In this document: piece by piece, positions 21,201 to 25,105 of the stretch | Position numbering within the stretch: the first letter of the stretch is position 1 | How the letters are laid out: each line of letters opens with the position of its first letter | Virus record (IMG/VR): IMGVR_UViG_2703718818_000017 | Source of the DNA: a virus | Lineage: Duplodnaviria > Heunggongvirae > Uroviricota > Caudoviricetes | Reading direction: 5' to 3' (one strand) | DNA: 25,105 nt | Program-made: the position numbers

Positions 21201-24200
21201 TGGTTCTGGCGGGGCAGTCAAACAGCATGGCATATGGTGAAGGCCTTCCGCTGCCGGAGACATATGACCGTCCGGACCCGCGTATTAAGCAGCTGGCGCG
21301 CCGCAGTACGGTGACACCGGGCGGTGCCGCCTGTAAGTATAACGACATTATTCCGGCGGACCATTGTCTGCATGATGTGCAGGACATGAGCCGTCTTAAC
21401 CATCCGAAAGCGGACCTGTCAAAGGGGCAGTACGGAACCGTGGGGCAGGGGCTGCATATCGCCAAAAAACTGCTGCCGTTTATACCGGCGAATGCGGGCA
21501 TTCTGCTGGTTCCGTGCTGCCGTGGTGCTTCGGCATTCACAACGGGTGCAGACGGCACATACAGCGAATCAGCCGGTGCATCGGAAAATTCACTGCGCTG
21601 GGGTGTGGGTAAGCCGCTGTATCAGGATTTGGTGAGCCGGACTAAAGCCGCACTGGCGAAGAACCCGAAAAACCGTCTGCTTGCGGTGGTGTGGATGCAG
21701 GGAGAAGGTGATGCGGCAGTGGGGACGCATGCGCAGCATCCGGGGCTGTTTAGTGCGATGGTGAATCAGTTCAGAACGGAGCTTGCCGGTCAGGCATCAC
21801 AGAGCACAGGAGGCAGCGCATCAGCGGTACCGTGGATTTGCGGGGACACAACGTATTTCTGGAAGCAGCGTCATGCGGAAGGGTATGCATCAGTATACGG
21901 AGGGTATAAGGGTAAGGAGTCGCAGAACATTTTCTTTGTACCGTTAATGACGGATGAGAATGGTGCGAATGTGCAGACCAATGACCCGGCAGAAGACCCG
22001 GACCTGGAAGCCGTCGGTTATTACGGTTCAAAGTGGCGTAATGACCAGAAGACCTGGACATCTGTGGACAGGGCCAGCCATTTCAGTTCATGGGCACGCC
22101 GTGGGATTATTTCCGACCGTCTGGCAACGGCGATTCTGGTGCATGCCGGGAGAACCGCTGAATTCATTACCGGAAAACAGCCTGATACGGTGAAGCCCAC
22201 CGGACCTTCCGGTGAAGGCCCGGAGAGAGAGCCGGAAGCCCCGGTCAGTAACCGAACCCTGATGAGTCTGCTGGCGTCCGGTGAAGACCTGGCATCACAG
22301 GGCTGGCGCTATTATCACAAACCGGCGAGCGGAGACAGTGTTAATAAAAACATCGCTGAGGCTGTGGTCAGTGATGAGGGGGCTACGGGAGGTAAGGCCC
22401 TGCAACTGAACAAACCGGAAAGCCACATCTGGTTTCTGGAGCATGATGCCGCCGGGCAGGGGGCAGAGTTGCTGAAGAAAGGCGGACGTGTGAGCGTACG
22501 GTTTAAGGTGCCGGGCGCACTGGTGCCGAATCAGTTTGCCCTGGGTATTTACTGGCAGTTGTCGTCCCTGCCGGAGGGAGTGACGCTGTCAGAGGAAGGC
22601 AACGACATGCTGATGTCCTTCTTCCTGCAGACGGATGCGACGAACCTGAACGCGATGTACCACAAGAAGCAGAATGCGAAGCTGGATACGTTCGGGGTCT
22701 TTGATAACGGATGGCACACACTGGCTTTTGAGTTTGCCGGAAACAACAGCATTCAGGTGACGCCGGTACTGGATGAGAAACGGGGTACACCGTTCACACT
22801 GGTGAAATCTCCGGCATCAGGGGCGGCGGACAAACTGCAACTGACAGACATATCAAAGGCGGCGACATATACGTTGCTGATTGACAGTGTGAAGGTGGAA
22901 GTGAACAACGCGGATGCCGCGGCATGATAAAAAAACCGCCAGTCGCAGGAATGTCGCTGGCGGTAAATACCCACGAACCCTTGTAATGAATGGATGTTTT
23001 TACATCAGTTGTTTTTTAATGAATTGCGTTTCTGTTGTCAACATTCATGGTGGGAAGTTTTCAGGACAAAAAAATCCACCAGTAAGCTCAGGGAGTACTG
23101 CGTCATGCTTCTGGTGGAAATGGTACGGCTATGAGGTTTTATTGTTATGCATGCCATAATTTTTCTACACAAAAGCAATTCTGAATGTCAATACGTTTTA
23201 TAAGGAATTGTTGTGCACACAGAGTAAATACACGGGGCTGTCAGTGTAACACTGGCGGCCTTTTTCATGTTGTGAGCTTCCGGCTTGCGGGAGACGGGGT
23301 ATGTACCAGATGGAAAAAATCACAACAGGTGTGTCATACACCACGTCAGCGGTGGGAACGGGCTACTGGTTCCTGCAGTTGCTGGACAGGGTTTCCCCGT
23401 CTCAGTGGGCGGCAATAGGCGTGCTGGGGAGTCTGCTGTTTGGGCTGCTGACATATCTGACGAACCTGTATTTCAAGATTAAAGAAGACCGGCGTAAGGC
23501 GGCGCGGGGAGAGTAAGCTGATGAGCAGGAAATTCCGCTATGGTTTATCAGCGGTCGTTCTGGCGCTGATTGCTGCAGGTGCTTCTGCGCCTGAAATCCT
23601 CGACCAGTTTCTGGATGAAAAGGAAGGTAACCACACAACAGCATACCGTGATGGTGCGGGTATCTGGACCATCTGCCGTGGTGCCACCCGGGTGGATGGT
23701 AAGCCTGTGATTCCTGGCATGAAGCTGTCGAAGGAAAAATGCGCACAGATTAATGCCATTGAACGTGATAAGGCGCTGGCATGGGTGGCGAAAAACATCA
23801 GAGTGCCACTGACCGAACCTCAGAAAGCGGGTATTGCGTCATTCTGTCCTTACAACATTGGCCCCGGTAAGTGTTTCCCGTCGACGTTTTATAAACGAAT
23901 TAATGCAGGCGATCGCAGGGGAGCATGTGAGGCGATTCGCTGGTGGATTAAGGACGGTGGCAGGGACTGCCGTATTCGCTCAAATAACTGCTACGGGCAG
24001 GTTATACGTCGTGACCAGGAAAGCGCGCTGACGTGCTGGGGCATCGACAGATAAGCAGAATATTTTGCTGAAAAATGACGTTGACCAACGCGAACGGATA
24101 ACACGAAATCCTGCGAACTGGCAAAATCTAAGTGAATAAAAGTAAAAACCCCGTTTGTTGGCAGCAAGCGGGGTTTTGTGTTTCTGACCTTGGATAAGGC

Positions 24201-25105
24201 AAGGGAGAAATTATGGTGAGGGAGGTGCTTTCCCTGTGAGGAAGTATAAAAGATTCTTTCTGAGGTTGTCCATTATGAAAGGCATTGAAGTGGAGACGCC
24301 AGCCAGTCTGGATTTAACAAGAGCGGCAGCTTTTGCCATTCGTATTATAGCCATTGCTGTTCTGATCTGGGCAATCCGTTGGTGGTGAAATGAACCGCGT
24401 TCTGTGTGTGGTCATCATTGCTCTGCTGGTGGCCTGTGGTGCGCTTAGTCTGGGGCTGAATCATTACCGCGATAACGCCATCACTTACAAAGCGCAGCGC
24501 GATAAAAAAGCCAGAGAGCTGGAGCTGGCAAACGCAACCATTACTGATATGCAGGTGCGCCAGCGTGATGTTGCTGCGCTCGATGCAAAATACTCGAGGG
24601 AATTAGCCGATGCGAGAGCTGAAAATGAAACTCTTCGCGCTGACGTTGCCGCTGGTCGTAAGCGCCTGCGTATCAACGCCACCTGTCCAGGTCCCGTGCG
24701 TGAAGCCACCGGCACCGCCCGCGTGGATAATGCAACCGGCCCCCAACTGGCAGACACCGTTACACGGGATTATTTCACCCTCAGAGAGCGGCTGATGACG
24801 ATGCAGAAGCAACTGGAAGGGGCGCAGGAATATATCCGTACTCAGTGCATTAAGTTGTCTTTTTATTATCCGGAAGATATATGAAGAAATTACTGGTAAC
24901 CGTAAAGCCTTTTCAGGGAACAATTCCGTTCCGTGTTTTGCAGCCTGGTCGTGTTCTTGTTGAAGGTACGTTCAGTGGTAAATGTACGCAATCATACTCC
25001 CGGGTCTTTCGGGTGGATGCCTCGAATGAAGAGCTAACCGTGGAGTGTGCTGTGAATGCCGCTAAATGCCGCATGGTATCGGCTGCATTACAGCCAGTGT
25101 GTTGA

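Follow-up and report, generated by a model that had tools for sequence, protein, structure and literature searches.

The question raised by the 3′ end of the virus record IMGVR_UViG_2703718818_000017 (25,105 nt; the whole stretch is hereafter called the window), which corresponds to the late region of a Shiga toxin (Stx)-type lambdoid prophage, is why its endolysin gene R and its spanin gene Rz are separated by 335 bp. R stops at position 24054 and the ATG of Rz lies at 24390, and in the interval (24055-24389) a first-pass annotation had recorded a terminator-like hairpin and a 37-residue micro open reading frame (ORF), describing the gap as unusual. Its coordinates were accurate: the hairpin arms (AACCCCG at 24147-24153 and CGGGGTT at 24169-24175) are followed by TTTTGTGTTT (24174-24183), the GAGG ribosome-binding site (RBS; 24262-24265) is located 9 nt 5′ of the ATG at 24275, and a single base (24389) separates the TGA of the micro-ORF (24386-24388) from the ATG of Rz. 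The gap itself is more ordinary than it first appeared, being a common insertion slot that holds a portable unit, and this unit adds an accessory gene to the late operon. The reading that we favor, with a probability of about 0.5, is that the gene encodes an accessory membrane peptide that would be expressed only late, behind a terminator, and would be translationally coupled to Rz.

A scan of viral contigs returned 153 relatives of the small ORF; 80 of these loci were fetched which, together with three fetched earlier, gave 83 loci. The reading frame was intact in every one of them (83/83). Approximately 25 of the viral-contig loci share with the window only positions 24236-24393, at 82% DNA identity. 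Between the window and this allele, 27 of 153 nt differ; codon position 3 accounts for 21 of these differences and position 2 for none, and the five resulting amino-acid changes are all conservative. The ratio of nonsynonymous to synonymous divergence (dN/dS) was ~0.05 for the small ORF, versus 1.2 and 7.6 for the other two frames of the + strand. The antisense frame that shares its wobble positions also yielded a low value (0.10), as expected there, and it has neither a start nor an RBS nor homologues. According to this substitution pattern, the small ORF is a real gene under strong purifying selection, which settles in its favor one of the points on which the first-pass annotation had made it depend, namely its conservation.

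The existence of a conserved ORF was therefore correctly recognized, but its product is probably longer than proposed. The 37-residue form (24275-24388, + strand), which is also the one in RefSeq (WP_000675930.1, PGAP annotation), begins at an internal in-frame ATG with the GAGG mentioned above. The frame, however, is open from a GTG at 24236 that has a perfect match to the anti-Shine-Dalgarno sequence (GGAGGTG, 24221-24227) 8 nt upstream, and for this reason the product is probably of 50 residues (24236-24388, + strand), the RefSeq model being probably truncated at its N-terminus. The PHROG 4493 profile matched the 50-residue form along positions 1-54 of its 56 (E = 2.9e-24, 85.7 bits) and the 37-residue form with E = 1.1e-15 and 58.2 bits; the related PHROG 1115 was matched as well. 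In two of the loci (L005 and L061) the start codon is ATG. The 13-residue N-terminal extension, RKYKRFFLRLSI, has a counterpart (EKYKRILLRLT) in the homologue that we designate type C, the window ORF being type A; in type C it stands directly after a strong RBS and is distinguished from its type A version by synonymous substitutions and a 3-nt indel that preserves the frame. The extension is also kept in distant members with an ATG start (MTVYRKTFRLRIS-M, MKLYRKFFRMRLS-M and MNVRRFLLRLS-M).

The internal methionine (Met14) is nearly invariant in the family, and seven of eight lineages use the rare AGG for the Arg codon from which the GAGG derives (AGA in L090). The conservation of a rare codon that creates an RBS makes a second, shorter product plausible, and ATG 24275 may thus be used as a second start for the 37-residue form. 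Upstream, an eight-codon ORF, MVREVLSL (24213-24239, + strand), read from the sequence and compared with L088 and L085, starts where the alleles of types B and C start, and its TGA overlaps the GTG at 24236 (GTGA). This ORF looks like a remnant of an ancestral start, and reinitiation may take place after it.

The 50-residue chain is predicted to begin with a basic helix (net charge +5), followed by an acidic linker and, at the C-terminus, a hydrophobic helix that ends in RWW. The hydrophobicity that had been attributed to the C-terminus of the micro-ORF was evident in the mean Kyte-Doolittle value of its last 19 residues (2.1), which is also the mean for residues 30-48. AlphaFold2 placed helices at residues 3-18 and 22-49, with a mean predicted local distance difference test score of 71 that rose to ~90 for residues 31-50. 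A profile search of 1.84 billion proteins yielded 29 representatives at E <= 0.001, none of them functionally characterized; the named ones belong to Escherichia, Salmonella, Citrobacter and Yersinia, each of them annotated as hypothetical.

Upstream of the gene, the terminator scan and RNA folding delimited a hairpin of the intrinsic-terminator type (24145-24183, + strand), formed by an A-tract, the stem CCCCGUUUGUUG/CAAGCGGGG and, immediately after this G+C-rich stem-loop, the U-rich tract UUUUGUGUUU. The stem has 11-15 bp (15 pairs and a loop of 3 in the terminator scan). The + strand RNA folds at −21.1 kcal/mol, whereas its shuffled versions fold at −9.5 ± 2.9 kcal/mol (z = −4.0; none of 200 shuffles was as good), so that what had been called terminator-like has the full anatomy of an intrinsic terminator, and a conserved one. 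Relatives carry other stem sequences that fold equally well. The − strand fold reached only −14.2 kcal/mol, ~7 kcal/mol weaker, because several of the pairs are G·U and exist only in the + strand RNA; this bias suggests that the structure is tuned to the strand of the lysis genes. A consensus scan, the only kind of promoter search made, did not detect any promoter-like sequence within 22800-25105 of the + strand.

Between the hairpin and the gene lies a leader (24184-24212, + strand) in which motif scanning and folding revealed a small stem, CCTTG-N7-CAAGG (24188-24204), that runs into the Shine-Dalgarno (SD) sequence AAGGGAG (24201-24207). This motif occurs once in the window, versus 0.05 expected. 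The leader that precedes types A, B and C can be written as CTGACCTTG(A/G)ATAAGGCAAGG(G)AG, and it is kept even in Rac-SA53, where the sequence 5′ of the hairpin is unlike that of the window. The window leader folds at −9.1 kcal/mol (z = −2.1), with the U-tract and CCUUG pairing with the SD region; most of the other leaders fold no better than shuffles (z from +0.3 to −0.9), the exceptions being the window and L088 (about −2.1). An apparent covariation in the leader stem was discarded: MAFFT had aligned TGACT/AGTCA with CCTTG/CAAGG in a shifted register, and hence the change is not compensatory at homologous columns. Only the variants CCTAT/ATAGG and CCGTG/CACG look compensatory. The small leader stem, which recurs in distant copies, is thus a tentative element.

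The segment between R and the hairpin is also conserved. When 20 distinct versions were aligned, this R 3′ untranslated region (UTR) of ~90 nt (24055-24144, + strand) showed a variable block (24079-24098) flanked by invariant ones; one of the invariant blocks, CGGATAACACGAAATCCTG, is itself a small inverted repeat. We took the UTR, the hairpin and the leader together as a 156-nt segment (24055-24210). This segment was 88-95% identical between loci, and R was 84-91% identical; relative to phage GER2 (L001), the segment was 95.5% and R 90.8% identical, with 0.31 differences per synonymous site in R, and relative to PhiR5_2 the values were 92.9% and 84.0%. The conservation of 24055-24210 therefore exceeds that of the synonymous sites of R. 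The UTR itself is kept in 933W, where the hairpin differs. Neither the hairpin nor the UTR had an Rfam match when 24055-24389 was searched at the gathering and at permissive thresholds (none with E below 0.17). The best permissive match, a rimP leader on the − strand (E = 0.17), was taken as a chance result.

The supposed rarity of the gap was not supported by the comparison with related phages. The R-distal 156-nt segment is present in 208 phage records, nearly all of them Stx-converting, at 80-99% identity. Of the 5426 complete E. coli genomes, 2029 have it (median, two copies each) and 674 contain the full 335 bp; that of the window is 100% identical to the one in E. coli STEC1590. The slot has alternative cargos. 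Type A, the window ORF (PHROG 4493), is carried by one phage record, exemplified by GER2, and by the 674 E. coli genomes. Type B is a 45-residue ORF, VFDFSKLIREIRVMAEKLSTWKFILIWLVFVIMVSGYFIGQIRWW (PHROG 6632), found in 46 phage records such as H-19B and CP-1639. Type C consists of a 60-residue homologue of type A (PHROG 1115) followed by a 43-residue membrane ORF (PHROG 4906), and is present in 12 records, including PhiR5_2. Type D, with 248 records that include 933W and Sakai Sp10, has a different hairpin, the ant gene and then an ORF of the PHROG 4906 type directly before Rz. In K-12 DLP12 the slot is empty: rrrD and rzpD overlap by 4 nt, and there is no small ORF.

The type D insertion resembles that of the window in that it occupies the same slot, after the same R 3′ UTR, and places a single-pass membrane ORF just before Rz; it differs in its cargo (ant plus PHROG 4906 instead of PHROG 4493) and in its hairpin, and the small proteins have no detectable similarity. 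The original GenBank record of 933W (AF125520) already annotated ant between R and Rz. The type D ORF, a single-pass membrane protein of 44-49 residues (L093, 933W, 3437-3571; L100, Sakai Sp10, 2125-2271), is unannotated in the 933W record and corresponds to ECs_1966 in Sakai, which was reported as XECs191, a novel translated small gene supported by ribosome profiling (PMC5597208). Type B is a separate family that has the leader and the C-terminal RWW in common with type A and occupies both R/Rz and V/W junctions. The leader and the final ~15 nt are common to the alleles that are swapped at the R-Rz slot. All of the Stx-type phages examined (six loci plus the record counts) have a small single-pass membrane ORF just 5′ of Rz, and at least three families of such ORFs (A/C, B and D) stand directly before Rz in Stx phages. 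We also observed a type B pseudogene in the Stx2a phage Stx2_14040 (L002, 2670-2798), shared with Stx2_14744 and Stx2_499, which has two in-frame stops, a TGA in the N-terminal extension and a TGG to TAG change in the core; the ORF is intact in ~40 other type B phages.

Relatives of the small ORF are found at other late-operon junctions as well. In the ~25 loci with the 82% allele, it belongs to a cassette with Phage_holin_8, a holin with three transmembrane segments and an M15 peptidase, and precedes a gene for a 60-residue lipoprotein. In SEN34, Rac-SA53 and metagenomic contigs it lies between baseplate V-like and W-like genes; in L090 it follows the major capsid gene, and in others the tail-fibre genes. 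L091 has an A-like ORF and then a B-like ORF in tandem, and in both L090 and L091 a second hairpin is present downstream. All copies with an intact 5′ end have their own G+C-rich hairpin and U-tract (−19 to −30 kcal/mol) with different stems, and the distance from the end of the hairpin to the SD-proximal start is 27-39 nt, while the sequence 5′ of the hairpin is not conserved between contexts. Judged by these comparisons, the hairpin, the ~30-nt leader and the small ORF are a portable unit, and its presence in head and tail gene clusters indicates that it is not specific to lysis cassettes.

Some of these loci deserve a separate description. In L064, a 60-residue predicted lipoprotein (2649-2831; lipobox LVGC, PHROG 7528) starts 1 nt after the type A ORF, and no Rz/Rz1 pair was recognized near the endolysin cassette with the M15 peptidase. 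In the metagenomic phage contig L090, five small membrane ORFs are arrayed after the major capsid gene (2930-3910), two of them type A-like, one type B-like and ending in VRWW, and two others, with three near-identical copies of the hairpin AAACGCCCCGGCAG...CTGCCGGGGCGTT between them. In Salmonella chromosomes (L097-L099, 3001-3601), a 49-residue member that ends in VRWW stands directly before Rz; this copy belongs to a widespread degraded prophage remnant beside host genes, its protein appears in 1647 blocks of the assembly collection, and a long, unrelated hairpin truncates its N-terminal extension.

In the favored reading, the R-Rz interval would be an accessory-gene slot, common in Stx-type lambdoid phages with phage-21-type lysis genes, that contains here the R 3′ UTR, the terminator-type hairpin, the leader with a strong RBS and the PHROG 4493 gene, whose product would be a tail-anchored inner-membrane peptide. 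Given that no promoter was found, the small gene appears to be transcribed only within the late pR′ transcript, and with the terminator-type hairpin upstream its expression should depend on antiterminated late transcription. In lambdoid phages, the Q-modified RNA polymerase reads through intrinsic terminators. It would therefore read through this hairpin, whereas the unmodified polymerase would stop there, and with such gating the peptide, Rz and Rz1 would be made only in late lytic growth and would remain silent in lysogens. Ribosomes that finish the small ORF 1 nt before the AUG of Rz could reinitiate at Rz, whose own upstream SD-like sequence (GGTGG) is weak. Reinitiation would restore the R-to-Rz coupling of the phages with an empty slot, the 1-nt geometry replacing the 4-nt overlap of DLP12. 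We infer both the gating and the coupling from the established biology of lambdoid phages. Regarding the action of the peptide, we can offer a guess: it might act late in infection at the inner membrane, perhaps on the pinholin, on the release of the signal-anchor-release (SAR) endolysin or on the spanin. A role in lysis is suggested because three families converge on the position before Rz.

Several observations weigh against this reading. A role confined to lysis or to Rz is disfavored by the family members located in head and tail clusters. Because the hairpin is downstream of S and R, it cannot be what silences the complete set of lysis genes in lysogens. Nor does tight coupling hold for the unit in general: in Rac-SA53 and SEN34 a distance of 7-15 nt separates it from the next gene, which has its own RBS. 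In addition, the peptide had no match in Pfam or NCBIfam and no hit to a characterized family, and its own family is very narrow. A bolder version of the idea, which we regard as a long shot, is that these units form a new class of portable, terminator-gated mini-cassettes of temperate enterobacterial phages encoding RWW tail-anchored peptides in two forms, and that the copy before Rz is a new lysis regulator, such as an anti-pinholin, a SAR endolysin-release factor or a spanin-activation factor. If this were true, the lysis-regulator copy would affect when the cell lyses and when Shiga toxin is released.

Two other explanations are serious rivals of the late, Rz-coupled gene. The gene could be of the moron type, providing a benefit unrelated to lysis (superinfection exclusion, receptor block or modulation of host membrane proteins), with the site before Rz merely tolerated. 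Both the A/C family and the unrelated B family occur at head, baseplate and tail-fibre junctions, the slot is filled or empty among relatives, and the G+C content of the gap (0.44-0.47) is lower than that of R and Rz (0.51-0.58). The unit of L064 precedes a small lipoprotein gene and that of L090 is part of an array of small membrane ORFs, contexts that resemble those of the exclusion genes of late operons. Known genes of this kind are HK97 gp15 and cor. A gene expressed in the lysogen, however, would need the opposite of an undetectable promoter with a terminator in front, and the settlement of at least three families of small membrane ORFs directly before Rz hints at a positional link. When compared with the morons of lambdoid phages, such as bor, lom and HK97 gp15 (Juhala et al. 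2000, cited in PMC4104026), the unit likewise adds a gene between two that are neighbors in relatives (rrrD and rzpD overlap in DLP12), is of lower G+C than its flanks, lies within a late operon, encodes a small envelope protein and is present or absent among relatives. A classic moron, in contrast, has its own sigma-70 promoter upstream, which the consensus scan did not detect here, and its terminator downstream, whereas here the hairpin is upstream and Rz begins 1 nt after the ORF. With the promoter missing and the terminator on the wrong side, the unit lacks two of the three classic moron features, and overall we consider this explanation possible, although on the unlikely side. More doubtful is a selfish or neutral mobile mini-cassette, in which the hairpin and the leader would be short homologies that shuffle small ORFs, and the protein would have little effect. 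The spacing of hairpin, leader and ORF is constant across unrelated contexts, three near-identical hairpins flank successive small ORFs in L090, A-like and B-like ORFs are in tandem in L091, and the alleles of the R-Rz slot share the leader and their last ~15 nt, all of which agrees with shuffling. Nevertheless, the dN/dS of ~0.05 and the 83 intact frames indicate that the product matters, and pseudogenes are rare, with a single B allele carrying in-frame stops that is common to three phages.

The remaining alternatives concern the RNA. The hairpin could be the 3′ end of a stable Hfq-type small RNA (sRNA) processed from the R 3′ UTR (24055-24183), the ORF being a separate matter. The excess conservation of 24055-24210 over the synonymous sites of R and the invariant UTR blocks would fit such an RNA, the 135-nt RNA folds with z = −3.2, Hfq usually binds a 3′ module of this kind, a terminator hairpin with a U-tail, and related prophages encode many sRNAs (PMC4104026; bioRxiv 10.64898/2026.05.13.724894). 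Still, no Rfam family was matched at either threshold, RNAalifold gave no covariation support to the UTR outside the terminator (covariation term −0.01), 933W keeps the UTR with a different hairpin, and the published Pas, AgvB and AsxR map to the esterase-holin interval instead of the R-Rz gap, which makes this proposal improbable. PasA/PasC and AgvB/AsxR were in fact rejected as identities of the R-Rz hairpin on account of that position and of their different sequences; neither an Rfam match nor the published position assigns 24055-24389 to AgvB, AsxR, Pas, STnc100 or Esr41. Two further readings are unlikely. One is an arrangement like that of type I toxin-antitoxin systems, with a membrane toxin peptide repressed by an antisense RNA that begins within the ORF and ends at a two-way hairpin. 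A promoter-like sequence on the − strand (TGGACA-18-TATACT, 24272-24243; 10 of 12 positions) would give a transcript covering both upstream RBSs, which could end at the hairpin since there is an A-tract on its other side, and the SD is partly paired within the leader. This single site, however, is below the number expected by chance (2.0 ± 1.3), its hexamers are within protein-conserved codons and are absent from distant members, the − strand form of the hairpin is less stable by 7 kcal/mol, and the unit is always co-oriented inside late operons, unlike known type I loci; we give the antisense mechanism very little credit. The other is that the small ORF is untranslated and its conservation reflects an RNA or DNA element, as might be argued from its short length and from the low value of the antisense frame with shared wobble positions. 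This we find hardly credible, considering the absence of changes at codon position 2, the I/L/V exchanges within the hydrophobic helix, the in-frame 3-nt indel relative to allele C, the switches between GTG and ATG starts, and the fact that distant members hold the protein pattern on unrelated DNA.

The favored late-expressed membrane peptide can also be compared with systems in which small membrane proteins act in lysis. Like lambda S105/S107 and phage 21 S68/S71, it is a small membrane protein in a lysis cassette with two conserved in-frame starts, and as in these dual-start holin/antiholin pairs there is an RBS for each start and the longer form carries extra positive charge at its N-terminus (+5 here). 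Unlike them, its starts are 13 codons apart instead of 2-3, its use of both is a prediction, it has one C-terminal hydrophobic helix without a charged tail, and it has members outside lysis cassettes. A holin or antiholin identity was rejected, as the peptide has no Pfam holin match, ends in RWW without a hydrophilic tail and belongs to a family that also occurs outside lysis cassettes. The releasin of Mu, gp25 (DUF2730; PMC9239132), is likewise a small protein tethered to the membrane, and its gene is close to that of a SAR endolysin. The dependence of the Mu endolysin gp22 on releasin lies in the basic residues of its cytoplasmic N-terminus (PMC9239132), and the endolysin of the window is similar in having three basic residues in its short cytoplasmic N-terminus. 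Yet gp25 has an N-terminal anchor and a cytoplasmic domain, the opposite topology, and Mu has no holin, whereas a pinholin is present here. The identification as a releasin was discarded because there is no DUF2730 or other Pfam match and the hydrophobic helix is C-terminal.

As a portable unit, the hairpin-leader-ORF arrangement has a parallel in the promoter-stem-loop cassettes (PeSL) reportedly described by Arbiol et al. in 2010 in T4-type phages, where repeated stem-loops are said to flank shuffled small ORFs. The likeness is in the short, repeated regulatory stem-loops that flank small ORFs and in their apparent shuffling between positions and genomes. PeSL differ in having an early promoter and in belonging to virulent phages, while the units studied here have no detectable promoter, reside in the late operons of temperate phages of enterobacteria, their products belonging to one or two recognizable peptide families.

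Part of this was already known: the ORF is in RefSeq (as hypothetical) and in PHROGs, and the type D ORF has the ribosome-profiling support mentioned above. Our literature searches returned no description of the portable hairpin-leader-ORF module or of its recurrence at particular late-operon junctions, of the likely 50-residue start with a conserved internal start, or of a small membrane ORF before Rz as a general trait of Stx phages; nor did they return a paper on the type A, B or C ORFs, type D appearing only as an unnamed novel small gene. Small membrane ORFs before Rz are often left unannotated in the records. Since Shiga toxin is released at prophage lysis, an extra gene in the lysis cassette could affect the timing and the amount of toxin. 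If the peptide were a neutral passenger, the finding would be a well-described example of phage mosaicism; its purifying selection and its travel with its own hairpin and leader between lysis, head and tail junctions make targeted experiments worthwhile.

The genes that flank the unit correspond to a phage-21-type lysis cassette, all of it on the + strand. S (23301-23516) encodes a class II holin of phage 21 type with 71 residues and in-frame Met codons 1 and 4 (Pfam Phage_holin_2_1, E = 7.2e-33), and R (23521-24054) a lysozyme-family endolysin (Pfam Phage_lysozyme, E = 6.6e-24). The translated N-terminus of R, MSRKFRYGLSAVVLALIAAGASAP, is rich in Ala and Gly and SAR-like, in line with the description of Stx-phage endolysins as predicted SAR endolysins (PMC8136144). 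Rz (24390-24884) is an i-spanin of 164 residues (Pfam Phage_lysis, E = 1.4e-48), and Rz1, the o-spanin (24610-24795; Pfam Rz1, E = 1e-19), is embedded in it.

Further upstream, a gene for a SASA/NanS-p-like esterase (20960-22927) is preceded by the sRNA STnc100 (20525-20733, + strand; 183 bits), and Rfam also identified a tRNA (19034-19107, + strand; 70 bits) and a C4 antisense RNA (9670-9756, − strand; 76 bits), the three of them above the gathering score. Between the esterase and holin genes there is a second terminator-like hairpin (23234-23262, + strand) of 13 pairs followed by TTTCATGTTG; it has no Rfam match, and it lies where, according to published work, sRNAs of the PasA/PasC and AgvB/AsxR types are found in related prophages. 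At the other end of the cassette, Rz has a C-terminal extension (10 residues) that is absent from other Rz alleles, and its stop overlaps (ATGA) with an ORF at 24881-25105 (+ strand), the last one listed, which stops at the end of the window and matches the middle of PHROG 2571.

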